Shown piece by piece: positions 14,799 through 60,414 of a stretch of DNA of 64,000 nt. The translations under genes and the position numbers were made by a program. Position 1 is the first letter of the stretch. Each line of letters begins with the position of its first letter. Source of the DNA: Nitrosopumilaceae archaeon (GTDB lineage Archaea > Thermoproteota > Nitrososphaeria > Nitrososphaerales > Nitrosopumilaceae); contig OZ242365.1 of NCBI GenBank assembly GCA_965208905.1, positions 1,696,001 to 1,760,000 of the forward strand, given 5' to 3'. The notes under the pieces are model-generated. The model did no database searches, was not told the DNA's origin, and was given only the letters and a program-made list of their open reading frames with translations.

Positions 14799-15245
14799 AC
14801 CTACGTGATGCCCTTACATTGAATATAACTCCTGTTAGAAATGTGAACTTCCATGTGTCAAGGATGGTTAACCAATCCTGACAGTGTCTAGGTAATGCTT
14901 TTTGGTCTGGGTCAATTATAGTATACTGTCTTATTTACAACGCGTGTCCGCAAACATGCGCGTGAGGTGGGAATATGGGCAACCACAAACCCCTCCAGAC
15001 CGCCACAACTTTCCCACCCAGCCCAGATTAACGACACATACCGTTAATCACATTGAAAAAAATTATTCGGGTGGTTGGTTGTTTACCCAGCCGGTCTTGC
15101 CAGACATGCTCTTACAGCTCGCGCAATCAACAGTCTGCGCCGCCAACATCTGTTGTACAACAGGCTGGCATCTCACGTTAACTTACCGGTTACTACACCA
15201 CCCCCACTGTAACCCATTAACGTATCCCATCACCAAGACAATACC

Positions 15246-15428
15246 ATGGAGAAGCCTCACTTTATCTGGTGGTTCGCGCACATAGTGCTGGGTGTGATTA
15301 CCGGACTTGTAGTCTACCTGCTATACAAGGAGAAGAACCCAGTAGCCGCGCGCAGACACCTAATCGGATCTGTAGTCATCATGATTGTGTTTAGCATATT
15401 CTTTCTGTCTCTCACATTTTTAGTCTAG
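15246..15428 (+). CDS. Small two-TM membrane protein
   Basis: Two hydrophobic helices; element-type promoter box 29 nt upstream. Confidence 0.7.
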   Translation: MEKPHFIWWFAHIVLGVITGLVVYLLYKEKNPVAARRHLIGSVVIMIVFSIFFLSLTFLV

Positions 15429-16408
15429 TATTTTGATATGCTGGATCCGTTAAGCACGGAGTGCCAGCGCGTGATACATTTTGGAAAGTCAGACCCGTCC
15501 TGCATGGCCAGTATGTCCCGTGTAGCAGGCCGCATAATCTTACCGCCGGGCAGCTCCAGCCTCATGCTTTCACCCATGCACCATCGGCAGAACACGGGTG
15601 CCATCGCGACGGCCTGCCCACCATGTATGCGGCGCAGCATGATTATCGCATCGGACGCATGCTTTTCGTCAAGTCCCCAGCGCTCGGTCAGCTCGTATAT
15701 CGGCTCAAAGCCGATTGCGCGGCTCAGTGTGCATTTGCATGCCTTCATTACCGCGCGTCCGCGCACGCTGCCAAATGTACCTGCAGCATATATGGTCACA
15801 CCCGTCTGGTGTACCGGACAAATATCAACGGGTACGGTCACGAGCACCACTATTCTGTCAACACTCACCTCAAATGCCGCATACTGTATGGTGTCATCAG
15901 GGAACGTATAGTCAATGCCTATGACCTCGCCGAGCAGGGCTCCCGCATACTCCCCGTTTATCGTGTGCAGTGGGTCGAACTGTGGATCCACGCTCATTGG
16001 ACGGCCCAGTATGGTACAGTATAGCCTCTGGACCTCCCCATTGTACAACTCCCACACGTGCCTAGAGTGCACATCAAGACCGGCCGCGCGAGCATCCTCC
16101 GGTACAAGCGGCAGCACGCCGGCCAGTACGCGTTCGGCGCGATGCTCGGCCAGTATGCGGGCGATGCACAGGCCATCCCCACTCATGGGCGGATGGTGTT
16201 CTGGCATTTGAACTCCCAACAGTCGTGTTATGTCGCGCACCCCGTATTCCACGAGTGCGTTGTTTAGTCCTGTCTGTGTATCCTCACTATTCAGTATTAG
16301 TCCACGGAACAGTTCACTGCGGTTTCTTATGCCGCGCTTGGCCATCAACTGGTGCATCATCTCAATCTCCGCATCATTCAGACTGAACGAGATTGGTATT
16401 CTACCCAT
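15425..16408 (-). CDS. RHH/CopG-like N-terminal domain protein with Cys-rich C-terminal region
   Basis: IPISFSL..RGIRNRSELFR; CPVH, CKC and CRWC motifs. Confidence 0.65.
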   Translation of the reverse strand: MGRIPISFSLNDAEIEMMHQLMAKRGIRNRSELFRGLILNSEDTQTGLNNALVEYGVRDITRLLGVQMPEHHPPMSGDGLCIARILAEHRAERVLAGVLPLVPEDARAAGLDVHSRHVWELYNGEVQRLYCTILGRPMSVDPQFDPLHTINGEYAGALLGEVIGIDYTFPDDTIQYAAFEVSVDRIVVLVTVPVDICPVHQTGVTIYAAGTFGSVRGRAVMKACKCTLSRAIGFEPIYELTERWGLDEKHASDAIIMLRRIHGGQAVAMAPVFCRWCMGESMRLELPGGKIMRPATRDILAMQDGSDFPKCITRWHSVLNGSSISKY

Positions 16409-16625
16409 TCGCCAACATCCCTCCTACCGGCTTGTCCGGCATCATCGCAGTGGGCGGTCCACCGCGCGAAGCGGCCAGCGCCTTGATAACAGCCTCCTGC
16501 AGCAGAATACGGATTAACTCATTCTGGTCTTTGATACCGCGTTTGTCCCTCAACAGGTCCATTCTCTCCAGATCTACTTCGGTGAGATACAGTGGTGTGG
16601 GACGCCGGAGGCTCTCAGGCATCAT
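16401..16625 (-). CDS. RHH/CopG-like DNA-binding protein
   Basis: TPLYLT..RGIKDQNELIRILLQEA. Confidence 0.65.
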   Translation of the reverse strand: MMPESLRRPTPLYLTEVDLERMDLLRDKRGIKDQNELIRILLQEAVIKALAASRGGPPTAMMPDKPVGGMLANG

Positions 16626-16950
16626 TTGCCGCCTCTCGCAGTATGACGCTGATTAACTGGCTATCGTTTTTGATCCCGCTCATCTCCTTCAACCATTCAA
16701 CCCTGCCCTCCGACATGCCGTCCAGACTGGCCAGCACATAACACGGCTTTTCGTCTGGCGGCCATCGTTTCCCGGGAGCATGCCGCATGCGCTCCATCTC
16801 ATCAGCCCCACCACTACAATAATACCACAGCAGGAAGCCCACACCCCAAGCGTTGGGCGTACCATCCCATGTGGTGCCCCGACGCGCGATGTTCCGGGCC
16901 AGCTCCTCATCTGATAACGACATGTCCAAGTCGCGCGGGTCAAACTCCAT
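16615..16950 (-). CDS. Protein with C-terminal RHH-like module
   Basis: SGIKNDSQLISVILREA; start MEFDP lies 28 nt from a promoter box. Confidence 0.6.
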   Translation of the reverse strand: MEFDPRDLDMSLSDEELARNIARRGTTWDGTPNAWGVGFLLWYYCSGGADEMERMRHAPGKRWPPDEKPCYVLASLDGMSEGRVEWLKEMSGIKNDSQLISVILREAANDA

Positions 16951-17026
16951 GCTTTGTATTGCTACGCATTCCATTTAAGGCGCTATATGGGTGTCCCCTT
17001 TTATACCGCCAATACGATACAATCAC

Positions 17027-17876: not shown

Positions 17877-17955
17877 GCAATGTAACGTATCCATCGTATA
17901 TAAGGGGTAAAAACCACTGTAACCCTTTAACGCCCCCCGAAAATGGTTGTTAAGC

Positions 17956-18354: not shown

Positions 18355-18417
18355 GAATTTTTCCCTGTTTTTTGAAACCCATATAGCGCCTTATATCGTA
18401 TGGTACAGTATGATGGC

Positions 18418-24559: not shown

Positions 24560-24633
24560 GATGTATAATGTGCGCGGGATACGTTTTTGGATTACACGTT
24601 TTGGTGTGGCCTGGTGTGGTTACTCCGAAATTA

Positions 24634-26061
24634 CTACTGGCTTTCTCTGCGCAGCTTTGCTATCTCTGCATCATACTTGCGCTGCATGTTCTCCAGGGCA
24701 TTGTCCTGCGCTGCGGCCAGCTGCTGTATCATGCCAGTCAGTGATTGTAATACATCCTGTGACATGCCGTCCGAGCTGGACTGCTTTTTTAATATATTCA
24801 GCAGGTCGGTGGCCGGCAACTCCCTCTGCTTCTTTAGCTCAAATATCTCCTGCCGCATTGAATCCCTCTCCTGTCTCATGTCGCTGATCTCGCGGGTTAG
24901 GCGCTCCAGTTTTCCATCTTTTTCGCTTTCAAGTTTCTGTATGTTGGACGACATTGTACGGTTGGATCGACGGAGCCGGTCAGCATCATCTATGGTCAAA
25001 TCCGGCACGACCTTGAGATATTCGGCGGCCATCTCCAACATCGATGTCTTGAAGTAGTTCTTGTCCAACGATACCAGTCCCGTATGCCCCATCATGTACT
25101 CTGTCCGTATAAGCGATGCAAGCGAGTCGCCCGACAGGGCTTCCTTGCATGTCTTGTTGAAGAACTTGCGAAAGCCGTGGACCAGCTGCGTCTCGAACCG
25201 GGCCCCCTTCTTGCTGCCCGGCTCACGCAACCCTGCCTTGGTGGCCATCTCACGCACCCGTTTGGCAATGGACGGTTCTGAGGCCTTCCGCGGCAGTAGT
25301 TTGGTGGCTAAAAACAGGTGGTCGTCGGGGCGGGGCTGCCGGCACATCATGTTGGCCCACGTGCGACCATACTCCAACATGGCGTTGTACGCCTCCGGGG
25401 TCGCAAAGGCAGTGTACTTTTCCGGAGAGCCTGCATAAACATCAAGCGCCACACATACTACATCCCCCCCATCAGACGGGTCGGCCGTCAGGCGCCCATC
25501 CTCCAAGTATATTGGCGTGAGGTTGCCCCATGTCATGTTGAGGCCACCCAGCCGTACACCGGAGCTGGCCAGCAGCAGTACAATGGCCCTGTCCATAGGG
25601 TCACGGGCATGTACCAGCATTGCCACTATCTCTTCCCTGGTCCACCCCTTGGTGTCCAGCACATTGTCCTTTTCGGGCAGCGTCGAATATACGCGCCTCC
25701 AGTTTATCGTAATATCGTTCATCTCCAACAGTTTGCGTATGGGCTTGAAGTATGTCTTGAAGGATGTGGGGTTGAGATAGTCTGTGTGGTCCTTGGGCAG
25801 CTCAGACCTGGCACGCAGTTTCCAAGACAGGCTAATCAAGAGATCCAGCATCCAGTCGGGGTTGTCCCTTCCGTATTGGACGAACTGCGCCACGCGCTCC
25901 TCAAAGTCGCCCTCCAGTATATCCTCAAGTATGTCGCAGGTTATGCGTCGCAGTGTCGCAGTATACTTGCGGCGCGTGGCCTCGGCCCTTATGCCGTGGC
26001 TGAACAGCTGCAGGGGCGTCATGCCTCCAGACTTGCCTATCTCCTCCCGAGTCAACTTCAT
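24634..26061 (-). CDS. Tyrosine recombinase/integrase with C-terminal coiled coil
   Basis: SSGVRLG (R), HGFRKF (HxxR), MMGH, KNYF (Y); directly downstream of the tRNA 3' end. Confidence 0.92.
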   Translation of the reverse strand: MKLTREEIGKSGGMTPLQLFSHGIRAEATRRKYTATLRRITCDILEDILEGDFEERVAQFVQYGRDNPDWMLDLLISLSWKLRARSELPKDHTDYLNPTSFKTYFKPIRKLLEMNDITINWRRVYSTLPEKDNVLDTKGWTREEIVAMLVHARDPMDRAIVLLLASSGVRLGGLNMTWGNLTPIYLEDGRLTADPSDGGDVVCVALDVYAGSPEKYTAFATPEAYNAMLEYGRTWANMMCRQPRPDDHLFLATKLLPRKASEPSIAKRVREMATKAGLREPGSKKGARFETQLVHGFRKFFNKTCKEALSGDSLASLIRTEYMMGHTGLVSLDKNYFKTSMLEMAAEYLKVVPDLTIDDADRLRRSNRTMSSNIQKLESEKDGKLERLTREISDMRQERDSMRQEIFELKKQRELPATDLLNILKKQSSSDGMSQDVLQSLTGMIQQLAAAQDNALENMQRKYDAEIAKLRRESQ

Positions 26062-26104: not shown

Positions 26105-26179
26105 TGGGCCCGGTGAGATTCGAACTCACGACCTTTCGATTATCAGTCGAACGCTCCAGCCAAGCTGAGCTACGAGCCC
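26105..26179 (-). tRNA. tRNA-Ile(GAT)
   Basis: GGGCTCG acceptor stem, TAGCTCAG, anticodon loop CTGATAA, GTTCGAATC T-loop, 3' CGGGCCCA. Confidence 0.97.
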
Positions 26180-31490: not shown

Positions 31491-32737
31491 TGGTGGGGAC
31501 CCCGCTAGAATGAGAACACTCACGTTCATACAGCTTAAAGTCGTAATGGGAGGGATGATGCCATGGTAAGAACAAAGTTTACTCCAGACCAAAAGATCCA
31601 GATCGTTTTGGAATCAATCAAGACCAATATTGGCACGGCCGAGCTGTGCCGCAAGCACAACGTTCATCCCCAAACGTTTCAAGCCTGGCGGCAAAAGTTC
31701 ATGGACGCAGGCAAGTCCGGACTGACCCATCACGGAAAGAAGGATCCGATAAAGGCCATCAAAAAGGAGAACGGCGACCTAAAGCGAATCATAGGGGATC
31801 TGACAATCGCAAACGACGCTTTAAAAAAAACCTTGGAGGCAAGCAACGATTGAACGCGGTAAAAATCATGCAGGAACAACATTTGAGCCTGCGCAAGTCG
31901 CTAGGGTATGCGGGCGTATCCAGGCGCCAATGGTACTACAAACCCAAGCCCAGAGACATGGGATTGAATCCGGATATATTGAGCACTGTGCTAGATACGA
32001 GCAGAAAGAGGCCCACGTACGGCACACGGCGCATGGCGGCCCAGATAACGCGCGATACGGGAATTGTGGTGAACCGCAAGCAGATACAGCGGATATATCG
32101 CAAAATGGGCTACATCCAGCCACAAAATACCAAAAACGACATCATTCGAGCGGGTCAAAAGCTCTTCAAACCCAAAGCCCCACACCAGTTGTGGGAGACG
32201 GACATCACATACATCTGGTGCGGTATAGACGGCTGGTGCTACTGCTTCAACGTAATTGACTGCTTTACGCGCAAGTGGATCGCCTACGCGTTTGATGTCA
32301 ATGCCACACGAGACATTGCAATCACCTCAATCACCAACGCGGTTGCCGCAGAGAAACCTGACTGCTCACAATTACGATTGCGTACGGACAACGGCAACCA
32401 GTATACGAGCCGCGACTTTAGACATGCGGTTCAGGCCCTTGGCATCGGCAAACATGAATTCATCTACAAGAATACGCCGGAGCAGAACGGACATGTCGAA
32501 TCATTTCACAAGACGCTGAAAAAGGAATACATCTGGCCGCACGAGTTTGCGAACTATCAGGAGGCAGAGACGATCATTGCAAAGGCCTTTGTAGATTACA
32601 ACACCGAGAGGATTCATTCCTCTATCGGATACATGACACCAGTAGAATTTGCCGAACAGTTGGAGATGACAAATAAATGATGGAAGATGTATGTAAAATC
32701 ATGCCGAAAACAGTAACATTCTATGGGGTCCACTCCA
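31491..32737 (+). mobile_element. IS3-family element with -1 programmed frameshift (A8 run at 31823-31830)
   Basis: TG..CA ends with TIRs tggtggggaccccgctagaatg / tggagtggaccccatagaatg; orfA HTH plus orfB DDE; no TSD. Confidence 0.9.
31563..32680 (+). CDS. IS3-family OrfAB transposase (frameshift fusion)
   Basis: OrfA 31563-31853; OrfB WETDITY..IDCFTR..RTDNGNQY..NGHVESFHKTLK. Confidence 0.9.
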
Positions 32738-34094: not shown

Positions 34095-34357
34095 TGCTAC
34101 CTAGCATATATGGGGGGCGTTAAAGGGTTACAGCGGTGGGGTGAGCCCCAGGACCAGTTGATGGCGTACGATACATTGTGGCTATTCCTGAGGGAGTGTA
34201 ACTGCTCCCCAGCGGCGTGATTACAACATAAATAATAGTTCTGCGTAGTTATATTATGGGAATTACACAAGAAGACTACGACCGCATACAGGCGAAGTTT
34301 GACAAATTGTATGAACATGTAGATGCCGCGCGTGCACATATCGCCAGGGCCAACGAA

Positions 34358-34588: not shown

Positions 34589-34827
34589 ATTACCATATCA
34601 TGTGAGAGACGTTTAAAGGTTAAACACGTGAACTGTCACAAAATTGCGTGTAGGGCTTGATGGTGGAAACACCAACGATACGTTAGAGTGGTTTGATTAT
34701 GCAGAAACTCTAAGACTGATTATTACGGCGGCAGCACGGAATCATGCAGCCATGCGCGGAAAGTCCTGAAAGGCGAATGACAAACTCCGTCTTTTCCCTT
34801 TTATGCCGCCGCTACACTACACGTATA

Positions 34828-39470: not shown

Positions 39471-39540
39471 GTTGATGTATTGTATTGATGGCATATAAGG
39501 AATGGATGGGATTCTATCCCAGATATTAAAAAACTAAATT

Positions 39541-46666: not shown

Positions 46667-46813
46667 GTTGGAACTGTTCAGTTATAGCGCCTGTGCGAAA
46701 CTTGGCGTACTGTTTCCACTTCAACCTTTATTTCCACTGTACAGTATGTACCGCCGTTTCCACCCTGTCACAAACTTTCCACTCTTTGCCAGGCTACCAT
46801 TTCTTCCCAGTCC
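46667..46813. repeat. Copy of the TTTCCACT/MITE repeat family
   Basis: Four TTTCCAC boxes; right end atttcttcccagtcc matches the TIR of 2519-2704. Confidence 0.7.
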
Positions 46814-46857
46814 AAACCCACAACCTCCCTTAAATGCCACCAATACGGTACTATACA

Positions 46858-48031: not shown

Positions 48032-48151
48032 GGTATTGTATTGTGTGGGGGGCGATTAAAGGTTGTAATTAACGGTAGAAGGAGCTAATACCTTATGGTT
48101 ATAACGGTTTTAGGTATGAAATGTTGTTTTATAACGGTTTTAGGTATGAAA

Positions 48152-49144: not shown

Positions 49145-49370
49145 GTGTGATGTATAGTAGCGGCGGTATAAAAGGAATGATTCAAAACGGAACTGGGAAG
49201 AAACGGTAATCTGGAGTAGAAACGTAGGTCGAGGTGGCGACAGGCGCCGCTATGGGACAGATACTGTACAGTGGAGCGCCACCGGCTGAGCATAACCACG
49301 TATTTGTATTGAAAAGGCATGCCGTAGTCGCATCACAGATATCATATAATACAATTGTGTCATATGCGTA

Positions 49371-50555: not shown

Positions 50556-50619
50556 CATATCATTCGTTTTTTATCCTTGGTGGCCTCGGGCCGCATATAG
50601 TGGGCAAGTGATCAACTCC

Positions 50620-50794: not shown

Positions 50795-50847
50795 AGATAA
50801 ATGCACAGCACAACCGCATACTACAAAGACTGCGCACCGCCGGTATG

Positions 50848-50866
50848 CCATATAGCGCCTTAAAAG
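50848..50866 (+). promoter_or_regulatory. Element-type promoter box CCATATAGCGCCTTAAA, 28 nt before the TBP start
   Basis: The same motif occurs at 16974-16990(-), 18379-18395(+) and 38834-38850(-). Confidence 0.7.
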
Positions 50867-50887
50867 GTAGCGGTCATTGGACCACAC

Positions 50888-51415
50888 ATGATAAAGATAA
50901 ACGTGCGAAACGTGGTTGTGGGCGGTACGGTTGGCATGGGTGTGCCGATAGATGTGTTGTCGCGGCTGAGCGGCGCAATGTATGATCCTACCGAGTTTCC
51001 CGGCGTCAGGTTCCGCTTAAACGGCTGTACGGTAATGATATTCGGCACGGGCAAGGTGGTGGTTGTGGGCAGTGTAACCGGCGAGGATGCGTTTGATGCA
51101 ATAAACATGCTTGTAGGCAAGCTTGCCGGGAGCAACATACCCATAGGTATGGTAAAACGCAGGGTATGCAATGTGGTGTGTACCGCATCAATACGCGCAA
51201 GCCTTGATCTTGGGAGGGTGTCACGTATCATACCGCGCTCAATGTACGATCCGGAACACTTTCCCGGTATAATAATACGGCGGCAGAATCCCAAATGTAC
51301 CGTATTGCTGTTTGCGTCGGGCAATCTGGTGTGTGTTGGCGCCGACTCTGTGCAAAACGCATCTGATGCAGTAAACCAACTGTATGATGAATTGTGCAGG
51401 GGGAAGCAGTTGTGA
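50888..51415 (+). CDS. tbp: TATA-box-binding protein, divergent, element-encoded
   Basis: Two repeats: NVV..YDPTEFPG..IFGTGK and NVV..YDPEHFPG..LFASGN. Confidence 0.93.
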   Translation: MIKINVRNVVVGGTVGMGVPIDVLSRLSGAMYDPTEFPGVRFRLNGCTVMIFGTGKVVVVGSVTGEDAFDAINMLVGKLAGSNIPIGMVKRRVCNVVCTASIRASLDLGRVSRIIPRSMYDPEHFPGIIIRRQNPKCTVLLFASGNLVCVGADSVQNASDAVNQLYDELCRGKQL

Positions 51416-51663
51416 AGGTTACCATACGGTATTACTGCGCACGATGCAAAGACGCCTTTGCCGCATATTGCACCGTCCCTGATGCCATTGCACAGCACAG
51501 TGATGCGTGCAATGGTATAATGGAGTTTTCGGGCGCAGATAGCACAAGACTGCTGTACATGTGTTCTGTGTGCGGGCATACAAAAACGCTGTACGTACCG
51601 GATATTATACCGGCCATGGCATCAAGACACCATGGCTGCGGCGAGGAGTGTTTGCCGTCATGA
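51412..51663 (+). CDS. Small Zn-finger protein
   Basis: CARC..HSDAC..CSVC..HHGC; GTGA/ATGA coupling on both sides. Confidence 0.65.
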   Translation: MKVTIRYYCARCKDAFAAYCTVPDAIAQHSDACNGIMEFSGADSTRLLYMCSVCGHTKTLYVPDIIPAMASRHHGCGEECLPS

Positions 51664-52592
51664 AGATACAAAAGCGTGATGGCTCGTACGCAGAGTATGA
51701 TGAATCAAAGGTAGTGCAGGCGGTCATGAAGGCCGGGGTAGGTCCGCGCAAGGCTGCGGAACTGGCAAGGGACGTGACCAGGCGGCTGCGCAGGCCGCTT
51801 ACCGTCTCTAGGGTGGGTGATCTGACAGAAGACGCCATGCTAAAGGCAGGATTATACGCCGAATGCAGGCAATACATAGAGTATCGTGCCAAAAGGCGTC
51901 TTGAGAGGGAGAAGAGGGCGATAATTACGGGCGGGGTTGATGAGAACCTCAAGTATCTCAGGGCCTCAACGCTCAAGGTGTTGCGCGCTGCCGGTACAGA
52001 CATATCACATACCATACGTTCTATACGGCCAAAGTGCGAGGAGTTGATACTCTCTGGGATGTTCATACCGGACGACATCATAATACATGAGCGCGTGCCG
52101 TCCGGGCCGTACCGCATAACAATGCCGCACGGCATCAAAGACCAACTGCATACGCTGCAGTATGCAAACAAGTATGCGATATACGTGGACTGGAATCGTA
52201 CACCCCAGAAGTTTCGGGAACTATTCCGTTCTACATGCGCGTATACAGGCTGTTTAATACGTGAGGGGAGGTTTGGCGGCATGCTGGATATGTCGCGCAT
52301 ACCGCTTCATACATTGGGTGAGGTGTGTAAACAGGCGGCTGAATTTCTGTCCGCATGGGAGGGTGCATCCGGTCCCGGTATAATAATACCGCCCGGCATG
52401 GATCACAAAACAATACATGATGTGTTGTATGGTGTAGTGCCTGACCTTGAGCCTACGGGGATATATGGAAAACGTGATGATGTCTGGGGGGATACGCCAT
52501 ACAGGGGCGGGTGTCCCGTATGCGGGGGCAAACTATTACACATGGAGTCGTGTGTATCATGCGCATGCGGCTGGTCTGCGTGTGCAACCTAA
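51660..52592 (+). CDS. ATP-cone protein with degenerate RNR core and C-terminal RNR-type Zn ribbon
   Basis: MKIQKRDG..YDESKV..YIEYR ATP-cone; CPVCGG..ESCVSCACGWSAC. Confidence 0.8.
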   Translation: MKIQKRDGSYAEYDESKVVQAVMKAGVGPRKAAELARDVTRRLRRPLTVSRVGDLTEDAMLKAGLYAECRQYIEYRAKRRLEREKRAIITGGVDENLKYLRASTLKVLRAAGTDISHTIRSIRPKCEELILSGMFIPDDIIIHERVPSGPYRITMPHGIKDQLHTLQYANKYAIYVDWNRTPQKFRELFRSTCAYTGCLIREGRFGGMLDMSRIPLHTLGEVCKQAAEFLSAWEGASGPGIIIPPGMDHKTIHDVLYGVVPDLEPTGIYGKRDDVWGDTPYRGGCPVCGGKLLHMESCVSCACGWSACAT

Positions 52593-52777
52593 AGGCTTGT
52601 AAGGATGGGTGTTCTACAAATGACCAAAATATCCGGCATCATCTTGTGGGACAATGCTTTAGGGTGATTTATGAGCTGTGCAATAATTGGCGCGTATGTA
52701 CGGTAGGCTAGTCTCACGTTAATTTACCAATTTCCCCACAATACTCCCCTTAAACGTCACCGATACACATCATAACC

Positions 52778-54909: not shown

Positions 54910-55097
54910 TGTATGGTCTCCCAGACCAGCGGGTCGCCTCCAAAGATGCTGGTCAGGTCATCCTTCGTCATATAATTATACAGGTACGGCGCGGCCGCAA
55001 GTATCACGCCCAGTACTATTGCCCTCGATAGCAGTTTTCGTATCTTCTCGGCTATCTCCACATTGTTGGATTCATCACCAATAGAACGATGATACAC
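54834..55097 (-). CDS. Small two-TM protein (VirB2-like candidate)
   Basis: Two hydrophobic helices; position within the secretion operon. Confidence 0.45.
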   Translation of the reverse strand: MYHRSIGDESNNVEIAEKIRKLLSRAIVLGVILAAAPYLYNYMTKDDLTSIFGGDPLVWETIQWSILVVIVFMILGLVGVARCTRDM

Positions 55098-57307
55098 TAT
55101 ACATTCGCCTCCGGACTCTTGTGTATTCTCCCACTCTTTCTGTATATTGTACCGGCCTCCTCCAGGCGCTGCATCGTACCGGCTATCTCACTATTCTCGT
55201 ATGTGCCGTGCATGTGACTCTGTAGTGTAGATATCGGCAGTCCGCCCTTGGGTATCATGTGCAGTATTTTTGACTCTATGTCATCAGTACTTTGCGTGTA
55301 TTCGCAGAATTTTAACGGGTTGGCGGGCCTGAACCCGGGAGGTATAGGTATGGACTTTCCTGCCAGTATGGCATCATATGTAATGACACTGACATGATAT
55401 GCAGTATGATCAACACCCATCTCGGCAAGCTGGCTTTTGACATGCTGTGCGTCACGTTCATTATACACCAAAAACCACACCGTACAATCAGGACTCTTCT
55501 TCCAGTTTTTGTACACCTGGCCCGGTTTTCCCGGCTTGTTTGGGTGACGCGCGGGGCCGGTCTCCACCTCTATGGCAACACGATTGCCCCAGCGCTGCAC
55601 ATCCGGATTCCCCTCGGGGCCGGTAGCGGGCTCGCATACCTCCAGATCAGCCATCTGTGATGCAGTATCGCCTACATCCATCTTTGTGTAGTAGCCGCGC
55701 CTCGTATAGTTGTCATGCAGTGCCTTTATGGTGCGTATGTGCCGCTCACCGCCGGCCCGTCCCTTCAGGGCGGCCACATCAAAGTGCTTGTTTATGCATT
55801 CAGCCCTTAAGGTGTAAATTGTATCATTGTGTCTGGATACCGCATCCACCACGCCATCGCGCCGCAGGTGCTCCAGACGCTGTGCTATGGTGCGCTTCTC
55901 CACATCAAAATGCCGAACCGCCTCATGTATGTCATGTATGCCCAGGCCGTCCGGATTATGGTACAGTATGGACATTATACACATATCCAGAGGCTTGACA
56001 TCGTATGCGTGCGCGGGATCATTTGTATATTTGGCCATGTCGACATCCACGCCATATGTAGCCAGCGAAAAGTCCACTATTTCGTCCAGTGTTGCATGGT
56101 GTACGACCGCATCATCCATGTTGCGCGTGCGCATCAGACTGCCGTGTACGTCGCCTGACGGCACCCCCATGTGGAAGCTCATGTGGAACTTGGGAATCTT
56201 TGTCAGTACCTCCGGCCTGTCTATGCCCATCTTTGGCGCAACCCTCTTGGCGGTATCCATCGTACAGTTGCTTACGATATACAGGGAGCAGTTTCCAAGC
56301 ATGGCGGCCGCATCATCCTTGTCTATGCTTTCAAGTTGCTGTGTTGCCAGCGTCATGCGTATGCCCCACTTTCTTACCTGTTGGAGCATCTCCTTGAGTT
56401 TGGTCGAATCTATCATCTGCATCTCGTCCACGTACAGGTAGAATTGCTTTGGCTTGACGTTTTGCGGGCGGGACTGCGCAAGCTTGGCGGCCGCAGTAGT
56501 CATCATCGTCAGCAAAAACGTGGTGAACAGCGTCCTCTCTATATCGTTGGAGCAGCCGGCCCCGTCAAATATCAGTATGCCGTGATTGTCCAACAGTTTC
56601 TGCATGTTGAATGCCGTACCGCCCTCAAAGAATGGCCCCACTGCGGGGTTCGATACTATGGGAGTCAGTTTGTTGTCTACTGCCGGGACCGCATCCTTTG
56701 CCTGCTTTGGAAATACCTTGTCCCAGAACAACAGGTTGTCCTGTATGTTGACGTCCGCCAGTACGATATCACGTTCGGACTCATCCAGTATTATTTTGTG
56801 CAGCAGGTCCATGCCGCCCCGACCAGACGCTATTATGCTTACGGCCGCCGCGGTCAGTATCTGCTGCATGCGCGGCCCGTCCGTCCCGAATGCCTTCAGC
56901 AAGGTTTCCGTAAAGGCCGTCGCCGCAGTTGCTGGCGAGTCACCATTCGGCTCAAGCGGGTTTATCGGCACTGCCTTTCCGGTGCGTTTCAGCTGATCCG
57001 GCGATATGTACACAAGATGGTTTGCGCGCCATTCTGGTATTCGCTGCGCAGCCCAGGCCGCCAGGTCGTGGTGCGGATCCAGTATGGCAACACCATCACC
57101 GCGTATGAGATTCTGGCGTATCAGCATCTTCAACACAGTACTCTTGCCAAAACCGCTGGAGCCCAGTATCATCGCGTGCAGCCGGTGCTTTTCGGGTATG
57201 CATATGGTATCGGCCGGTATGTTGGGATCATACCTGTCATGCGTATACCCTATGGCCGTCAGCCCATCGGGTATGGGATTACTCCCCGGCGGGACGATGC
57301 TACTCAT
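55097..57307 (-). CDS. VirD4/HerA-like coupling ATPase with C-terminal wHTH and PD-(D/E)XK-like domain
   Basis: Walker A GSSGFGKS, ILDPH, Walker B YVDEMQ, RKWG, LATQ; later ADL..AIEVE. Confidence 0.85.
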   Translation of the reverse strand: MSSIVPPGSNPIPDGLTAIGYTHDRYDPNIPADTICIPEKHRLHAMILGSSGFGKSTVLKMLIRQNLIRGDGVAILDPHHDLAAWAAQRIPEWRANHLVYISPDQLKRTGKAVPINPLEPNGDSPATAATAFTETLLKAFGTDGPRMQQILTAAAVSIIASGRGGMDLLHKIILDESERDIVLADVNIQDNLLFWDKVFPKQAKDAVPAVDNKLTPIVSNPAVGPFFEGGTAFNMQKLLDNHGILIFDGAGCSNDIERTLFTTFLLTMMTTAAAKLAQSRPQNVKPKQFYLYVDEMQMIDSTKLKEMLQQVRKWGIRMTLATQQLESIDKDDAAAMLGNCSLYIVSNCTMDTAKRVAPKMGIDRPEVLTKIPKFHMSFHMGVPSGDVHGSLMRTRNMDDAVVHHATLDEIVDFSLATYGVDVDMAKYTNDPAHAYDVKPLDMCIMSILYHNPDGLGIHDIHEAVRHFDVEKRTIAQRLEHLRRDGVVDAVSRHNDTIYTLRAECINKHFDVAALKGRAGGERHIRTIKALHDNYTRRGYYTKMDVGDTASQMADLEVCEPATGPEGNPDVQRWGNRVAIEVETGPARHPNKPGKPGQVYKNWKKSPDCTVWFLVYNERDAQHVKSQLAEMGVDHTAYHVSVITYDAILAGKSIPIPPGFRPANPLKFCEYTQSTDDIESKILHMIPKGGLPISTLQSHMHGTYENSEIAGTMQRLEEAGTIYRKSGRIHKSPEANV

Positions 57308-59375
57308 AATACCTCCCCAGTATGCTGAATACCGACTGTACGTCATTGGCGTCATGTATGATGCACTCCTCCAGCAACTCTTCGCGGCGTTTCATGTCGG
57401 CGGCGGGGTTTTGAACGTTGTTCCTAAAGCACGCCTCCGTATATTGCTGCGTATTCAGCATGTTCTTTGCTTCATGGAACGAGTCGTCCTGCAATGAATA
57501 GGTGAATATCTCTTTTAGTACGGGCTTGCCGTCTATGCCCGGCGTTACCTCGGTTATGTTTCGAACGCGGCGTTTGGATATGCCGGATATGCGGACCTCG
57601 GTAACATATACTATAAACCCCAGCAGGGCGAGTTCCGCATGGGATACGCCGCCCAGTTCCATGCGGGTAAGCGCGCCCAGGGGCGTGTTGGCATGGAAAG
57701 TCGTATTGTGCGTTACGACGCCATCCCCGTGCGTAAAGTTGCCCGTTGACTTTACCTCTATGTCGTATAGTGTGGTGCCCAGCGAGGGTATCTCCACGGA
57801 TTGTATGGTACGCCACTCATATGTATTCTGTATTGCGTGGTATCGCTCGGGTATTATATGGCATTCCCGTACAAACTCCTCCGGGCCGGATAATGCGAAC
57901 TGCCTTAAATCCGCTACCCTTTGCCTTGCAAGCAGTTTTCCGCCGTCCGCATCAAGCGGTATGGCCATCTCGTCTCCGTTTGATACATGTGTAGCCACAT
58001 CCCGGTACAGTCCACATATTACGGGTATCGAGTCGCCAATCTTTACATCGGATGCATGTATCACGCCCCTCTCCGTAATCATGGGATGGTGCGCATGTAC
58101 AGTGCAGGTGGCCCCGCCCGCGGTTATGCGCCTCCAGTCATCCTTTCCGTGCTTTACGATTGTGCCGGTTATGGGGTGCCAGTCACATTTGCCGCCCTCC
58201 ATTGAGTATGCGTATAGCGTCTCGCCGTCCCGGAACCGCTCTATTACATTTCGTATGGTATCATATGATATGGTGGAGCCGTTTTTTACAGGCATCATCT
58301 CGTTGGGCGGCAGACACAAGCCGCCGTGCCCGGTGCCCATGGATTGAAACAGGTACTTGGCATCGGCCACATCCCTTATCTCGCCCACTATCTCATAGTC
58401 GGGCTTCTGCGTGAGTGACTGGTCTATCAGTTTTTGAATGGTAACGTCGTGCTCTGAACCAACTATCGATGTGGTCTTTTTTGTGTGATATCGTACCCAG
58501 TCCTCGTGCGGTATCTGCAGCTCCAGAGAGTCCTCTATGGTTAAAATGCGCCAGCGCGGATGCATCATGGTTGTAAGTGCGGACAACAGCGTGGTCTTGC
58601 CCGAACCCGTAGTGCCTATTACCAGCCCGGCGGCGCGCGCATTGAGCAGCGACCACAGATATGCGCACATTCTGGGCGTCAGCGTATTGCCCTTCATCAT
58701 GTGTGTAATTACATACGGATTTTCCGGGAATTTTCTTATGGCTATTGTGCTGCCGGGCTCGGATACCACACTCTTGAAGGTCGCCGATATACGCGACTTG
58801 TCCTGCAGATACGTGACGGCTCCCGGCTTTGCCACGGTGGGCTCGTTTCCGGTGGGCCTGAACATCCTTGATATGAATGTGGCCATAGCCGCGTCGGTAC
58901 GAAACAGTACGTTCGTCTTTAGTGAGTGGAACCTGTTGCTGTGTACTTTGTGTTTTATGTATGCGGGCCTGCCGGGAGCGGAGACTAGTATGTCCTCTAT
59001 ATGCGGATCCGTCATCAAAGGGTGCAGTATGCCGTATCCGGTAACATCTCGGGATATGTAGTATTTGAGCGCATGAAACAACCCATCAAGTTCGCGCTTT
59101 TCGTATATCTTCATGCCAACATCCCAGAACCGCTTCTTTACTATACGTTCCAGTTCTGCGGGCGTCTTGTTCTTGACGTCCAGTACCATACTCTCCCACA
59201 TCTTCTGTATAATGCGCGTGTATGCTTTACCGGCGGCTTCTGAGAATGGCGGCTCGGTTACCAGATAGCGGCCATCCGCCGTCACCCGTACCGAGACCAT
59301 GCCGTCGGCCACGGTATACTGGTCGATTATCTCGAAATCTTCAACATCAACGCTGGTGTGGTGTATGGTATCCAT
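57300..59375 (-). CDS. VirB11/CpaF/FlaI-type secretion ATPase with intein
   Basis: DPHIEDI, IRKF, GTTGSGKTT, TIEDSLEL, PD..VGEIR, TGHG..TFHA. Confidence 0.92.
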   Translation of the reverse strand: MDTIHHTSVDVEDFEIIDQYTVADGMVSVRVTADGRYLVTEPPFSEAAGKAYTRIIQKMWESMVLDVKNKTPAELERIVKKRFWDVGMKIYEKRELDGLFHALKYYISRDVTGYGILHPLMTDPHIEDILVSAPGRPAYIKHKVHSNRFHSLKTNVLFRTDAAMATFISRMFRPTGNEPTVAKPGAVTYLQDKSRISATFKSVVSEPGSTIAIRKFPENPYVITHMMKGNTLTPRMCAYLWSLLNARAAGLVIGTTGSGKTTLLSALTTMMHPRWRILTIEDSLELQIPHEDWVRYHTKKTTSIVGSEHDVTIQKLIDQSLTQKPDYEIVGEIRDVADAKYLFQSMGTGHGGLCLPPNEMMPVKNGSTISYDTIRNVIERFRDGETLYAYSMEGGKCDWHPITGTIVKHGKDDWRRITAGGATCTVHAHHPMITERGVIHASDVKIGDSIPVICGLYRDVATHVSNGDEMAIPLDADGGKLLARQRVADLRQFALSGPEEFVRECHIIPERYHAIQNTYEWRTIQSVEIPSLGTTLYDIEVKSTGNFTHGDGVVTHNTTFHANTPLGALTRMELGGVSHAELALLGFIVYVTEVRISGISKRRVRNITEVTPGIDGKPVLKEIFTYSLQDDSFHEAKNMLNTQQYTEACFRNNVQNPAADMKRREELLEECIIHDANDVQSVFSILGRYYE
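57705..58316 (-). mobile_element. Mini-intein (204 aa) in the secretion ATPase at GHGGL|TTFH
   Basis: Starts CLPPNE; ends LYDIEV..GNF..VVTHN followed by Thr. Confidence 0.9.
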
Positions 59376-59516
59376 ACTATATTGTATGACCAGGGGGCGT
59401 TAATGGATTACAGTGGGTATGCCGGACCCGCACCGCTGGGTTAACCTAACGAGGAAGTATGACCCCGCCCGGCTGACTATATCATGCATGGTGCAATTTA
59501 AGGCTCCATATGACAT

Positions 59517-60105
59517 GGGGCTGTTAAGTTACTGTGACCCACCGGATGGTGTTAAATCTGTGACCTAGGGTGGTTAGACCTGGGGCTGTAACATCTAACA
59601 TCACATGAGATGGTGTAATATGCGTCACCATTTGTCCAAAATACATAAATAAAGTAACTACCACCATGAGTATTATGTCAGATGACGGAGATTATGTGGA
59701 TAAGAAAGATGTTGAGAGGCGTAGAAAGGAAATAGAGGAATACGCAAAGAACGATCAGCGACGCAAAATCGTCTACGATGAAGATTTATAAACCACAATC
59801 CCTACTATACAATATGGATGATATACAGAGAAAGAGGAAGGTAGATACATACTTTACGACAGGTACCCCCACTGGTCCCTACAAGGCGACATATGAGGAC
59901 AGTCTAAAGGAGATAAGGAACCCATTTGCGTTGGATAAAACCAAAGGTGCTCCGGGCTTTCCGCGAACACGTTAGAAATTTCTAGTTTTCAAATCACGTA
60001 AAACTCCTTGGGTTTTTCCACCCTACCCCTTTTCATCTTTAAAGAGATCCTGTCCGGGTCACAGATTTAACACCATCCGGTGGGTCACAGTAACTTAACA
60101 GCCCC
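59517..60105. mobile_element. Non-autonomous transposon: perfect 49-bp TIRs (GGGGCTG..), 8-bp TSD TATGACAT
   Basis: 59517-59565 is the reverse complement of 60057-60105; TSD at 59509-59516 and 60106-60113. Confidence 0.93.
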
Positions 60106-60165
60106 TATGACATAACGCTAAATCTCGTTAATTCCTTAAACGTCACCGAACACATACCATACCAA

Positions 60166-60414
60166 ATGGGCTGCATAACAACCAAGCATATAGGACGGGC
60201 CGATTATGTTTACGTGGAGTGGTACGCCAACGGTATACACAGGACAAAGTCATGCGGTAATGCGGCCAGGCCGGAGAGTTTCCGGCGTGCTCGTCAGGTG
60301 CTGGTTGATGTTATGCGCGAACGTATAGCGGCGATGGAGTCGCAGGTTGACCAAATGATTATAGACGCCGAAATCGGGGCGGTAAACGGCCAGGCTGATG
60401 AATCCCCTCCTTAA
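60166..60414 (+). CDS. Hypothetical protein
   Basis: YVYVEWY..TKSCG beta-rich N-terminus plus coiled coil; promoter box 30 nt upstream. Confidence 0.6.
   Translation: MGCITTKHIGRADYVYVEWYANGIHRTKSCGNAARPESFRRARQVLVDVMRERIAAMESQVDQMIIDAEIGAVNGQADESPP

Follow-up and report, generated by a model that had tools for sequence, protein, structure and literature searches.

A divergent accessory TBP and a promoter style restricted to mobile DNA in a conjugative-type island of a Nitrosopumilaceae archaeon

Introduction

The locus described here has its precedents in TBPs carried on haloarchaeal replicons and in TFIIB homologues encoded by thaumarchaeal conjugative elements. In Halobacterium sp. NRC-1, four tbp genes are located on pNRC100 and one on pNRC200, and TBP–TFB combinations have been proposed to recognise different promoter classes; the sections of that work dealing with these paralogues report mostly chromosomal targets and describe no replicon-specific promoter dialect (PMC2121645). 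For the thaumarchaeal ICEs, the authors suggested in their remarks on the TFIIB homologues that these could alter promoter specificity (PMC6563490, PMC5797428). Neither article uses the terms "TBP" or "TATA" in its main text, and element promoters are undescribed there, "promoter" being absent from the main text of PMC6563490 and appearing once in that of PMC5797428, in the TFIIB remark. A TBP (arCOG01764) is listed without comment for the integrated element NitAQ6f-E1 in the 2019 supplement (Krupovic et al. 2019). The rudiviruses SIRV1/2 carry a conserved GTC motif downstream of an ordinary TATA/BRE promoter and, in the review section concerned, are presumed to rely on the TBP and TFB of the host, encoding neither themselves (PMC5569661).

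The window analysed here, a 64,000-nucleotide stretch, contains an extra TBP gene, TBP-C. As in Halobacterium, where the passages cited place extra TBP genes on accessory replicons, the factor is carried by accessory DNA; unlike those paralogues, TBP-C belongs to an integrated island of conjugative type, is found together with a promoter style restricted to mobile DNA, and has a basic DNA-face residue without counterpart in 148 of 149 other TBPs. The thaumarchaeal ICEs, as presented in the parts concerned (Krupovic et al. 2019; Abby et al. 2018), offer the closer likeness, in that a mobile element from the same phylum comes with its own general transcription factor, and VirB4/TraG-type and FlaI-type ATPases are present in the window too. 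Here, however, the factor is a TBP rather than a TFB, and the window blocks contain no TFB. Two ICE traits given in the relevant part of PMC6563490, an element TFIIB homologue and an integrase with flanking att repeats at a tRNA gene, were not found in the window. The likeness to SIRV1/2, as that review section describes them, lies in a mobile element adding a conserved short motif to its promoters, and the difference in the TBP encoded here.

The window shares features with two further systems. In bacteria, phage and plasmid sigma factors are promoter-recognition subunits supplied by a mobile element that marks its own genes with matching promoters. TBP-C would work in the same manner if the explanation favoured below is true, although it belongs to another protein family and machinery, the core element is not replaced but only its flanks, and the case is read here from sequence. 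Eukaryotic TRF/TBPL proteins are cellular TBP paralogues with changed DNA-contact residues that serve promoter subsets. They resemble TBP-D, a second TBP of the island lacking both repeat-2 Phe; unlike these cellular genes, the gene here belongs to a mobile element, and TBP-C keeps all its Phe.

Composition of the island

The window is part of a conjugative-type mobile DNA patchwork of about 200 kb (genome 1.59-1.79 Mb). The first-pass annotation had treated 15203-60166 as one element; this span instead comprises two blocks, split by a tRNA-Ile segment (window 26091-28112, 96% identical to the sister genome G153) and an IS3 element, and its pieces lie at no fewer than four loci in the closest relative.

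24634..26061, - strand: possible tyrosine recombinase, 475 aa, adjoining tRNA-Ile; host-like box AACTTTAATAGG
26105..26179, - strand: tRNA-Ile(GAU), start of the conserved, host-like segment separating the two blocks of the element
31563..32680, + strand: IS3-family transposase pair (HTH_Tnp_1 and rve), right end of the host-like segment
36077..38806, - strand: ribonucleotide reductase (RNR) large chain, 909 aa (PF02867, E 3.8e-120)
41572..46626, - strand: PKD/Ig-repeat surface protein, 1684 aa; host-like box CTTTATAAATAA
49371..50555, + strand: 394-aa protein of no known family; host-like box ATCATATAATAC
55097..57355, - strand: VirB4/TraG/HerA-like conjugation ATPase, 752 aa (Pfam, NCBIfam)
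57300..59375, - strand: FlaI/VirB11-type secretion ATPase, 691 aa, with an intein-like insert (PF00437, Intein_splicing, NF058587)

The internal sequence of the IS3 pair is multi-copy in the genome, and the possible recombinase has a weak partial XerA match only (E 8.9e-5). Searches of the tRNA region with 14-mers and local alignment found no att repeats. In PMC6563490 the traits defining a thaumarchaeal ICE include a pair of VirB4/TrbE-like and VirD4/TraG-like ATPases. The 752-aa ATPase matches both TraG/TrwB and VirB4 models weakly, and the window yielded no second gene of VirB4/VirD4 type. Orthologues of the 752-aa ATPase (at least 62% identity) are confined to those genomes of the genus in which a C-family TBP is present too. 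The gene of an RHH protein occupies 16401-16625, and 15425-16408 gives a weak RHH match.

Within the window coordinates there is no match to TFB (PF00382, PF08271). The adjoining island DNA encodes four TFB homologues (genome 1612872, 1666194, 1670146 and 1689973), of which the closest precedes the window by about 5 kb. TBP-D is located in the same island, just outside the window; this second, aberrant TBP is unrelated to the TBP-C family, and it too has Arg at the yeast I103 position, and both its repeat-2 Phe are lost (Tyr and His).

Promoter style of the element genes

The 19 start codons for which a shared TATA-like box had been listed all carry it on the strand given, and a further box of the same kind, absent from that list, precedes 24559(-).

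50843..50887, + strand: class B promoter of the TBP operon, CCATATAGCGCCTTAAAAGG
38807..38851, - strand: class B promoter of the RNR gene; same class at the RNR orthologues of G153 and G401
16951..16995, - strand: class B promoter of gene 16615-16950
18373..18417, + strand: class B promoter of gene 18418-18639
15201..15245, + strand: class A promoter, CTGTAACCCATTAACG
17911..17955, + strand: class A promoter
34095..34139, - strand: class A promoter of gene 33291-34094; near-identical copy at genome 1778431
59376..59420, - strand: class A promoter of the FlaI/VirB11-like ATPase operon; orthologues in G401, G316 keep TAACCCATTAAC / TAACCAATTTAC
24560..24604, - strand: class A-like promoter, GTGTAATCCAAAAACG
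34589..34633, - strand: CC-TTTAAACG promoter
39688..39732, - strand: CCC-TTTAACG promoter
46813..46857, + strand: CCC-TTAAATG promoter, CCAATAC downstream
48032..48076, - strand: CC-TTTAATCG promoter of an enoyl-CoA hydratase-like gene
52733..52777, + strand: CCCC-TTAAACG promoter, CCGATAC downstream
60121..60165, + strand: CC-TTAAACG promoter; RNA contigs over 59816-60274
16982..17026, + strand: CCCC-TTTTATACC promoter, back to back with the class B promoter 16951-16995
17877..17921, - strand: CCCC-TTATATAC promoter, back to back with the class A promoter 17911-17955
34783..34827, + strand: CCC-TTTTATGCC promoter of a PD-(D/E)XK/Cas4-like nuclease gene
39471..39515, - strand: CC-TTATATGCC promoter of a rhomboid gene
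49145..49189, - strand: CC-TTTTATACC promoter of the 330-aa gene 48152-49144

The promoters within classes A and B have strings of 16-18 nt in common. The class A string CTGTAA[CT]CC[TA]TTAACG occurs eight times in the 2.21-Mb genome, four of them in the window (15207(+), 17917(+), 34133(-) and 59413(-)), and the class B string CCATATAGCGCCTTA[AT]A seven times, again with four in the window (16990(-), 18379(+), 38850(-) and 50848(+)); a simple calculation puts the chance expectation for an 18-mer with two two-fold positions at about 0.0003 occurrences. At least two promoter classes are conserved, AACCCWTTAACG and GCGCC-TTAAAW/TTTTAA-GG. The spacing first described is borne out: of the 20 promoters, 18 have their TTA at -26 to -30, that of 38806 has it at -32, and the box at 24559 lacks TTA. 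The contrasting host-like boxes before the integrase-like gene (26061) and the PKD gene (46626) are likewise present.

Element promoters consist of an ordinary TTWAW core, a CC clamp on its 5' side, and (C/T)G with a C-rich stretch on its 3' side. Since both the core and its place (-29..-24, leaderless) are the same as in the host, the term "non-canonical" is too strong. The flanks, of which the first-pass annotation described the upstream one as C-rich in place of a purine-rich BRE, do differ, with CC at -2/-1, G at +6, C-rich sequence downstream and none of the host's A-rich BRE; core and spacing are ordinary. When 292 host promoters were compared with 44 promoters of mobile regions, genes being chosen by region only, flank differences appeared at -2, -1, +5, +6, +10..12 and +15 (p down to 2e-7), and also at -5. 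The CC and the G at +6 are common to all four classes and to unrelated genes. Longer strings recur within the four promoter sub-families, so operator sites or a history of copying may account for part of the information content.

Scored with a host PWM, element promoters have a median of 4.7 against 7.2 for the 291 host promoters with a core, 88% of which outscore the element median (p 8e-7), and their longest A/T run is 6 against 8. Compared with all 1227 host upstream regions, the medians are 4.7 and 4.9 (p 0.99); element promoters are thus no worse than these, and host TBP could read them.

RNA contigs span 49385-50647 over the 394-aa gene, where they are the deepest of the stretch examined, and 48677-49129 over the C-clamped gene 48152-49144, ending 15-22 nt short of its ATG. 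RNA contigs are absent for most element genes and present for genes with host-like boxes, a weak hint rather than countable evidence.

Distribution across the genome and its relatives

The promoter class is restricted to mobile DNA and element genes. A PWM trained on the window gave 78 genome matches with an ATG-started ORF of at least 45 codons 25-32 nt on (28 at a control offset); 45 fell within two regions, 555-600 kb and 1.59-1.79 Mb, that together account for 11% of its length, and 12 of the remaining 33 are promoters of two multi-copy transposase genes. A model built from the 20 window promoters placed 39 of its 42 matches to this genome in the same two regions. Independently of the PWM, CC directly before TTWAW at -34..-25 was counted in 31 of 1250 host genes and 8 of 23 called element genes. 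Overall, the style is rare in the remaining genome; its occurrences concentrate in four regions of mobile DNA and, in sister genomes, in the islands homologous to them.

The homologous island of G316 (65% G+C) has 19 matches in 169 kb, against one in 200 kb of control DNA from that genome. Promoter class is retained by orthologous genes in G153 as well as in G401 and G316, where protein identity is 44-72%; the class is kept across divergence and a G+C shift. G153 has a TBP-C-family gene and 11 promoter-model matches. The model, trained at 46-53% G+C, under-detects in high-G+C genomes, with two matches in G316. G401 has a C-family TBP with no model match and one PWM match in each of two 40-kb stretches, its boxes being recognised by eye only. 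Around conjugation ATPases of a different type (30-31% identity), 40-kb flanks contain one, zero and zero matches in G270, G117 and G153, and the style is therefore not a general trait of conjugative modules. Among genomes of the genus, the window-type ATPase and promoter-model matches track accessory TBPs, a co-occurrence expected from linkage on one element family in genomes that are kin.

The accessory TBP

50888..51415, + strand: accessory TBP (TBP-C), 175 aa; V60 and V150 at the Thr positions, Arg41 at the yeast I103 position

TBP-C consists of two tandem TBP repeats (Pfam PF00352, E 8.6e-38), and its best solved relatives are archaeal TBPs (1ais, 1d3u and 1pcz, E 5e-32). Two minor-groove Asn and four kinking Phe have DNA-contact roles in TBP. 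A list of yeast null mutants partly backs these roles; in the entries of Table 1 concerned, I103K, T124N/R and T215R abolish DNA binding (PMC2265533). The motifs GKVVVVG and GNLVCVG read as first annotated, and both Asn and all four Phe are kept; across the 17 members aligned, N8, N95, F37, F52, F125, F142 and E123 are invariant. The acidic E-P-E stirrup is kept, with His in place of host Gln beside it in all members of the family, and repeat 1 has a two-residue deletion before the strand "GCTVMIF". With a dN/dS of 0.185 against G153, the gene is under purifying selection.

At the yeast T124 position, the 18 family members have Val in 17 and Ala in one, and at T215 Val in 17 and Ile in one. 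The replacement of Thr by Val is indeed foreign to ordinary TBPs of the class, 24 of 25 from other genera being T/T, but it is not rare among divergent TBPs generally: among 149 other representatives, Thr or Ser occupies both positions in 85, is missing at one in 45 and at both in 19 (in P. woesei TBP they are Thr and Ser). At the central base pairs, which these positions read, host and element boxes alike are A/T, and this counts against the explanation favoured below. A sharper family signature, new here, is the basic residue on the DNA-facing sheet at the yeast I103 position: Arg in 13, Lys in four and Gln in one of the 18, against Val in 67, Ile in 56, Thr in 11 and Arg in one of the 149 others, that is, Arg or Lys in 17/18 versus 1/149.

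In the phylogeny, the family is set on a long branch of its own (100/99), which lies apart from the 27 cellular TBPs of the class. All ten genomes of the genus have two canonical TBPs each, and six have accessory TBPs; TBP-C is a divergent, accessory and selected gene. As the first-pass annotation had noted, it sits under one of the element boxes, the class B promoter at 50843-50887. A G/C-clamped box precedes all six accessory TBP genes examined, GCC-TTTTAA/TTAAAA-GG being found also before those of G153 and G401 and before TBP-D, and TTTTATAG variants in G335 and G316.

Possible readers of the element promoters

We tentatively favour, at somewhat less than even chances, the explanation that the accessory TBP of this element family activates its own G/C-clamped promoters through host RNA polymerase. 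As read from sequence, host TBP and TFB would fire the short, BRE-less boxes weakly, that of the TBP operon included; the accessory TBP would then outdo host TBP in binding the G/C-clamped boxes, whose G/C at the 3' end would be read by the basic residue in its N-terminal repeat. Acting with a TFB (that of the host would be enough in G153), it would recruit host RNA polymerase, with self-reinforcing, element-wide activation as the outcome. The extra TBP and the promoter style suggest that mobile DNA may steer the cell's transcription machinery toward itself. Of the private transcription system first proposed, the mobile-restricted promoter style and the divergent, selected TBP stand; the system cannot be strictly private, since the promoter of TBP-C belongs to the same class and host factors must be able to fire it first. 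Transcription in situ of the C-clamped gene 48152-49144 also counts against activation by TBP-C. The upstream CC and the C-rich downstream positions are where TFB, rather than TBP, is expected to touch DNA. With much of the distinctive flank signal at such positions and four TFB genes in the island, reading by TBP loses support, and the island TFBs and the second TBP could equally carry the specificity.

It is rather unlikely, though a serious competitor, that host TBP and TFB read all promoters, the flanks being copy history or operator sites of element regulators (candidates are the RHH/CopG-like proteins and the ATP-cone protein of the blocks) and the accessory TBP having a narrower role. 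TBP-C may, for example, control only class B genes (its own operon and RNR) with the nucleotide-sensing ATP-cone protein, or host genes. Core and spacing identical to the host, indistinguishable scores against all host upstream regions, the in situ transcript of a C-clamped gene and the RHH proteins at 16401-16625 and, weakly, 15425-16408 fit host reading, and class A and B strings of 16-18 nt exceed what a TBP/TFB footprint needs. For the narrower role speak the common class B promoters and joint conservation of TBP, RNR and the ATP-cone protein, and Halobacterium TbpD on pNRC100, which in the section concerned regulates mostly chromosomal genes (PMC2121645). Host reading fits less well with CC and G at +6 extending beyond the long-string sub-families to all four classes and unrelated genes, with promoters weak next to core-bearing host promoters, and with a basic DNA-face residue in both accessory TBPs, which asks for a non-host DNA target. 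Specificity residing in island TFB homologues, which would read the C-rich stretches at the BRE place and downstream with the accessory TBPs as co-adapted partners, appears improbable. It draws on the four island TFBs, one about 5 kb from the window, on the G316 island with five TFB matches beside four TBP genes, on the differences at -5, -2, -1 and +10..+15, outside the central TBP contacts, and on the stirrup His found throughout the family; in the parts of the literature concerned, all described thaumarchaeal ICEs encode TFIIB homologues (PMC6563490), for which altered promoter specificity was proposed (PMC5797428). The two window blocks nevertheless lack a TFB, and G153 has the TBP, the operon and 11 promoter-model matches with only five TFBs, all host-type and matching by length the non-island TFBs of the present genome, while the other conjugative type, with a TFB adjoining the ATPase in G270, lacks the promoter style. 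Very improbable, finally, is an accessory TBP acting as a negative factor that sits on the boxes without productive TFB/RNAP recruitment, keeping the integrated element quiet, or titrates host TFB. The stirrup His for Gln, the repeat 1 deletion and the scarcity of RNA contigs over most element genes but not those with host-like boxes (weak and not countable) are compatible with it, as is TBP-D without both repeat-2 Phe, the same kind of Phe loss as in TBP-related factors that no longer bind TATA. A repressor, however, would not need the whole saddle, whereas TBP-C keeps under purifying selection the four Phe, both Asn and the acidic stirrup that an initiation-competent TBP needs.

Operon partners of TBP-C

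51394..51663, + strand: 89-aa Cys-rich (Zn-ribbon-like) protein, operon gene 2, overlapping the TBP stop
51660..52592, + strand: 310-aa ATP-cone protein, operon gene 3 (PF03477, E 4.7e-13)

In this element family the TBP gene heads a three-gene operon that is conserved. The 89-aa protein has weak Zn-ribbon Pfam matches only, and its gene directly follows TBP in G153 (94%), G316 (51%) and G401 (47%). The 310-aa protein comprises an N-terminal ATP-cone, to which its matches to solved structures are confined, a middle part of no known family and a C-terminal Cys cluster; its predicted model has a pLDDT of 64.4, with residues 147-204 and 266-310 mostly below 50. It has 15 full-length relatives at 56-92% identity, several of them on contigs of the same size as those carrying TBP-family members.

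Promoter boxes and their flanks

The genome under study (G000) is a single contig of 2.21 Mb with 45.6% G+C, in which a codon-usage score followed by greedy selection yielded a rough set of 2009 genes covering 80% of the genome; several element starts are mis-called, so counts based on these calls understate the element. All 19 start codons to which the first-pass annotation had assigned a shared TATA-like box carry one on the correct strand; in agreement with that description, 18 promoters have the TTA at -26 to -30 and one has it at -32. A 20th box of the same kind lies upstream of 24559 (-). Two long box strings occur 8 and 7 times genome-wide, including four times each inside the window at the genes reported for them. 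Host-like boxes were confirmed for the integrase-like and PKD genes, and one also precedes the gene at 49371 (394 aa).

The core and its placement are shared with the host. In 1355 upstream regions that have an ATG start and no fewer than 45 nt of non-coding sequence, T is over-represented at -29 to -27 and A at -26 to -24 and -35 to -32; expectation maximization gave aAAnnyTTAWATA for these regions and CCTTWAAyGyCnCC for 29 element upstream regions. Most host genes are therefore leaderless as well, and their box stands at the same position, so neither spacing nor core is distinctive of the element. The description of the element promoters as non-canonical thus holds for the flanks and fails for core and spacing. 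The flanks were compared in genes picked by genome region only, with TTWAW at -31 to -26 (292 host and 44 mobile-region promoters). C occupies box position -2 in 0.61 of mobile-region versus 0.20 of host promoters (p 2e-7) and position -1 in 0.55 versus 0.27; position -5 has A in 0.48 of host and C in 0.39 of mobile-region promoters; and G at position +6 reaches 0.43 versus 0.14 (p 6e-6). Further differences fall at +5, +10 to +12 and +15, and many element promoters carry CC(A/G)(A/C)TAC about 8 nt downstream of the box.

Scored with a host PWM, the 20 element promoters have a median of 4.7, against 4.9 for the full set of 1227 host upstream regions lying outside mobile DNA (p 0.99) and 3.5 for shuffled controls. 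The 291 host promoters with the core in place reach 7.2 (p 8e-7), 88% of them scoring above the element median, and their longest A/T run is 8, compared with 6 in element promoters. Taken together, the two comparisons indicate that element promoters look like usable but weak host promoters.

Restriction to mobile DNA

A PWM trained on the window found 55 genome sites at 14 bits or more, 14 of them within window 15.2-60.5 kb where 1.1 would be expected by length, an enrichment that is circular because of the training set. At 10.5 bits or more it found 491 sites; in 78 of these, an ATG that opens a frame of 45 codons or longer lies 25-32 nt downstream, compared with 28 at a control offset. The motif is concentrated in mobile DNA: 45 of the 78 lie in two mobile regions, genome 555-600 kb and 1.59-1.79 Mb, which make up 11% of the genome, and 19 belong to the window's element. 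Among the 33 sites elsewhere, 12 are promoters of two multi-copy transposase genes. For whole-genome counts we used a sequence model built from 20 window promoters, IUPAC patterns being too coarse for the purpose; 39 of its 42 sites in G000 are in these two regions, and of the three outside them, two belong to the transposase genes just mentioned. These transposase genes (450/451 aa and 433 aa) have boxes of the CCTTAAATA type followed by ATACCG/GATACG, for example at genome 104345, 339721, 457459, 1102275 and 1258658, all outside the window.

Organization of the island

The mobile DNA extends beyond the window. The 1.59-1.696 Mb interval encodes restriction-modification proteins, a TraG/VirB4-like ATPase, a prepilin peptidase, TadC, transposases and four TFB homologues (genome 1612872, 1666194, 1670146 and 1689973). 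The window's first 15 kb likewise consist of mobile DNA and contain two transposases, a DNA methylase, DUF5131 and a SocA antitoxin. Pfam and NCBIfam further assign to the window a VirB4/TraG/HerA-like ATPase, a FlaI/VirB11-type ATPase, a ribonucleotide reductase (RNR), a Cas4-like nuclease, a rhomboid protein, an enoyl-CoA hydratase, PKD and pentapeptide repeat proteins, and a weak XerA-like protein adjoining tRNA-Ile. The FlaI/VirB11-type ATPase (57300-59375, -) has an intein-like insert, with Intein_splicing at residues 373-557 and a weak match to the RNAP A'' intein region. Rfam detected only tRNA-Ile over the window, and PHROGs added nothing beyond an exonuclease name for 34828-35448.

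The interval 15203-60166, previously taken as one element, is better described as two blocks of a mosaic. Between them lies a conserved segment, closed by an IS3, in which 26091-28112 (tRNA-Ile, the AhpC gene and part of a wHTH/B12-domain gene) is 96% identical to the same-genus genome G153. The mobile parts of the window are 79-94% identical to G153 at no fewer than four separate loci. A search for att repeats of the tRNA-Ile region, using exact 14-mers over genome 1.55-1.83 Mb and local alignment within the window, found none.

Accessory TBPs

Four TBP genes are present in the genome:

678178-678747, genome: canonical TBP
2045589-2046149, genome: canonical TBP
50888-51415 (+), window: accessory TBP-C, 175 aa
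1630858-1631376, genome (L006:1489-2007, L056:858-1376; outside the window): accessory TBP-D

The canonical genes carry the GKMVCTG and GKLVCTG motifs and host-like boxes. TBP-C has 17 relatives at 51-91% identity, which an exhaustive search returned as one 50% cluster (E 2e-61), the next match standing at 8e-38. No relative was found in a scan of viral contigs or in a metagenome scan with the family alignment, whose matches were canonical TBPs of at most 39% identity; a scan of genome contigs placed the family at two loci only (90% and 54% identity), the other 78 being canonical TBPs. In a maximum-likelihood tree of 54 rows, a branch of length 1.12 (support 100/99) separates the 18 members of the family from all other rows. 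The 27 cellular TBPs of the class group in a single clade (97/87) that also takes in two database relatives, and the branch of TBP-D is very long. The tree is rooted at the midpoint only, and long branches meet in it.

Threonines of the yeast T124/T215 type take part in reading the central base pairs of the box. They were located through the residues in Table 1 of PMC2265533, fitted position by position to the archaeal sequence; the P. woesei TBP has Thr in repeat 1 and Ser in repeat 2. The TBP-C family has Val in 17 of 18 members in each repeat, the exceptions being one Ala in repeat 1 and one Ile in repeat 2. The replacement, already pointed out in TBP-C, is not common in ordinary TBPs of the class: 24 of 25 from other genera are T/T and one is T/V. 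In 85 of the 149 other TBP representatives most similar to the query, both positions are Thr or Ser; 45 have such a residue at a single position and 19 lack it altogether. As far as these sequences go, Thr-to-Val replacement is unusual among cellular TBPs of the class, but not among divergent paralogues at large.

A second, sharper signature distinguishes the family. The yeast I103 position, on the same strand face as Phe99 and Arg105, is Arg41 in TBP-C and is Arg in 13 members, Lys in four and Gln in one; the 149 other TBPs have mostly Val (67), Ile (56) or Thr (11), with a single Arg. The N-terminal repeat of TBP lies over the 3' half of the box, where the conserved (C/T)G of the element boxes is found, and we infer a tie between the Arg41-side repeat and this dinucleotide. 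The family keeps N8, N95, F37, F52, F125 and F142, and in its E-P-E stirrup E121 is nearly invariant and E123 invariant; His124, Gln in host TBPs, is likewise invariant. The dN/dS between G000 and G153 is 0.185 for TBP-C. The yeast substitutions I103K, T124N/R and T215R appear as nulls for DNA binding in Table 1 of PMC2265533.

TBP-D is 28% identical to TBP-C and has two known close relatives (92%). Its Thr positions hold Ala/Val, the two Phe of repeat 2 are replaced by Tyr and His, and the I103 position is Arg, as in both relatives. Two small ORFs separate its gene from a TraG/VirB4-like ATPase gene downstream, and its own box is CTCCTTAAAAGGG.

The TBP operon

Directly after TBP-C, and overlapping its stop codon, is a gene for an 89-aa Cys-rich protein, kept in G153, G316 and G401. 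The third product, of 310 aa, has an N-terminal ATP-cone and a C-terminal Cys cluster; its dN/dS (G000 versus G153) is 0.189, and its relatives occur on contigs of the same size as those with TBP-family members. A profile search of solved structures matched the ATP-cone part alone, and the predicted structure averages a pLDDT of 64.4, most of residues 147-204 and 266-310 falling below 50. The RNR gene and the TBP operon share a class B promoter, one of the conserved long-string sub-families, in G000, G153 and G401.

Distribution in sister genomes

Among 401 genomes of the class, matches to TBP-C of at least 54% identity were confined to four of the same genus: G153 (90%), G335 (55%), G316 (55%) and G070 (95% over residues 1-80, with an internal stop). 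Two canonical TBPs occur in all ten genomes of the genus and accessory TBPs in six; that of G401 is V/V at the Thr positions, with Arg at the I103 position. A conjugation ATPase of the window type (at least 62% identity) is present in G000, G153, G401, G316 and G335 only. The promoter model had 42 matches in G000, 15 in G070, 11 in G153, five in G335, two in G316, one in G113 and none in G258, G270, G401 or G117. Since ORF calls in the high-G+C genomes are too noisy for a host consensus, these were judged by densities of PWM matches.

Table. PWM matches in sister genomes
G316 island (2.315-2.484 Mb, 65% G+C): 19 in 169 kb
G316 control DNA (58-64% G+C): 1 in 200 kb
G316 TBP flanks: 3 in 40 kb; control: 0 in 60 kb
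G153 TBP flanks: 5 in 40 kb; control: 2 in 60 kb
G335 TBP flanks: 4 in 40 kb; control: 0 in 60 kb
G401 contig with window-type ATPase: 1 in 40 kb
40-kb flanks of the other ATPase type (30-31% identity): G270, 1; G117, 0; G153, 0

Given the contrast between the G316 island and its host DNA, we reject the view that the C/G flanks are a mere by-product of the island's higher G+C, and given the counts beside the other ATPase type we reject a style common to all conjugative modules of the genus. By eye, G401 has AACCCATTAAC and CGCCTTTTAAGGGAG boxes, the latter preceding its TBP, RNR and 806-aa genes, and orthologous genes keep their promoter class across G000, G153, G401 and G316. The G316 island (G316:C1:2315001-2483853; L064-L070, L043, L044; genome about 60% G+C) holds four TBP genes (V/V, V/V, T/A and canonical T/T) and five TFB matches. 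Because the genomes are kin and these features are linked on one element family, their co-occurrence is compatible with a functional tie but is no proof of one.

The V/V pair of G316 stands head to head at 2443135-2444378, and the canonical copy lies at 2387075-2387656. In G153 one canonical TBP gene is apparently split (G153:C1:1324293-1324807), its repeats occupying two open frames (154 and 126 aa) with a gap of about 100 nt where about 30 is usual, possibly through an assembly error. G+C varies by some 15-20 points within the genus, from 45-47% in stretches of G000, G153 and G401 to 58-64% in the G316 and G335 controls.

Possible roles of the element TBP

The sequence facts behind the first-pass annotation are right, and stronger than sequence alone could show, owing to the Arg/Lys signature, the conserved operon, the second aberrant TBP and conservation across a 20-point shift in G+C. 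Its proposal that the element TBP reads the element promoters is plausible to us, though somewhat short of an even chance, and the mechanism is an inference. The promoters may instead be read by the host, with the TBP serving another role, a possibility we consider real but on the whole unlikely. Specificity might also be borne by a TFB: TFIIB homologues are reported from all thaumarchaeal ICEs (PMC6563490) and "could alter the promoter specificity" (PMC5797428), and the island has four of its own. G153, however, has the TBP and only five TFBs, length-matched to the non-island TFBs of G000, and we regard this explanation as improbable. A negative role for the TBP seems slightly more improbable still.

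If the element TBP does read these promoters, a larger and more doubtful proposal may be put forward, namely an orthogonal basal-transcription module owned by the conjugative-type islands of one Nitrosopumilaceae genus. The minor-groove Arg/Lys of the N-terminal repeat, with Val for both central Thr, would retune the TBP towards short G/C-clamped boxes (CC-W5-6-G); the conserved Cys-rich and ATP-cone partners would gate it by nucleotide level; and the replication, dNTP-supply and transfer genes of the island would form a self-activating regulon that host TBP reads only weakly. Such a module would do in archaea what a phage sigma factor does in bacteria, with TBP as its point of action.

Archaeal viruses appear to use host TBP and TFB, and plasmids are generally regarded likewise, according to a review (PMC5569661). 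Promoter choice by alternative TBPs is unsettled even in haloarchaea; in Halobacterium NRC-1, five of six tbp genes are on pNRC100/200 (PMC2121645). Literature searches on mobile-element TBPs in archaea brought up no pertinent report. "TBP" and "TATA" are absent from the main texts of PMC6563490 and PMC5797428, and the 2019 supplement of the former shows one TBP inside one integrated element, uncommented. The present case offers a small, naturally paired set, with an accessory TBP bearing a nearly unique basic DNA-face residue, some 20 promoters on each element that fall into two to four classes, and two canonical host TBPs as built-in controls. Whether a TBP paralogue defines a promoter class thereby becomes directly testable by binding, transcription and point mutants. 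The case is also relevant to the silencing and activation of conjugative elements in archaea of the Nitrosopumilaceae type, and may explain how they function in hosts of 46% and of 60-65% G+C within one genus.

Transcripts and repeated sequences

Near-identical RNA contigs were found in four metatranscriptome runs of one study, labelled "sponge metagenome":

48677-49129: C-clamped gene
49385-50647: gene with a host-like box, the deepest contig
50642-50815
59686-60274

As assembled contigs, these give neither start sites nor levels; the TBP operon and most C-clamped genes lie outside them, which is uninformative on expression. The contig over 50642-50815 is free of mismatches and spans one copy of a 79-nt dispersed repeat (50696-50774, 2608-2686 and 7826-7904; copies 61-78% alike, with many in G153), about 110 nt upstream of the TBP-C gene.

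A conserved unit of about 75 nt occurs in four copies, each directly upstream of another promoter:

59398-59479 (-), window
L054:1875-1956 (+)
L055:5245-5326 (-)
L056:5670-5751 (-)

Each has an element-type box CCTTAAATGCAACC and, some 16 nt on, GCCGGGCGGGGT, which can pair with GCCCGGC about 45 nt further. The 7-bp stem is invariant and hence shows no covariation; the unit might represent a small RNA, or else a site acting as DNA, for example an origin of transfer. Dense nested repeats, with units of 38-119 nt around GGTTGACTAGTCATG and GCCAGGGTTAAGGCGCCATAC, occupy 60577-61650 and 63480-63880 and flank the 608-aa pentapeptide-repeat gene at 61668-63494.
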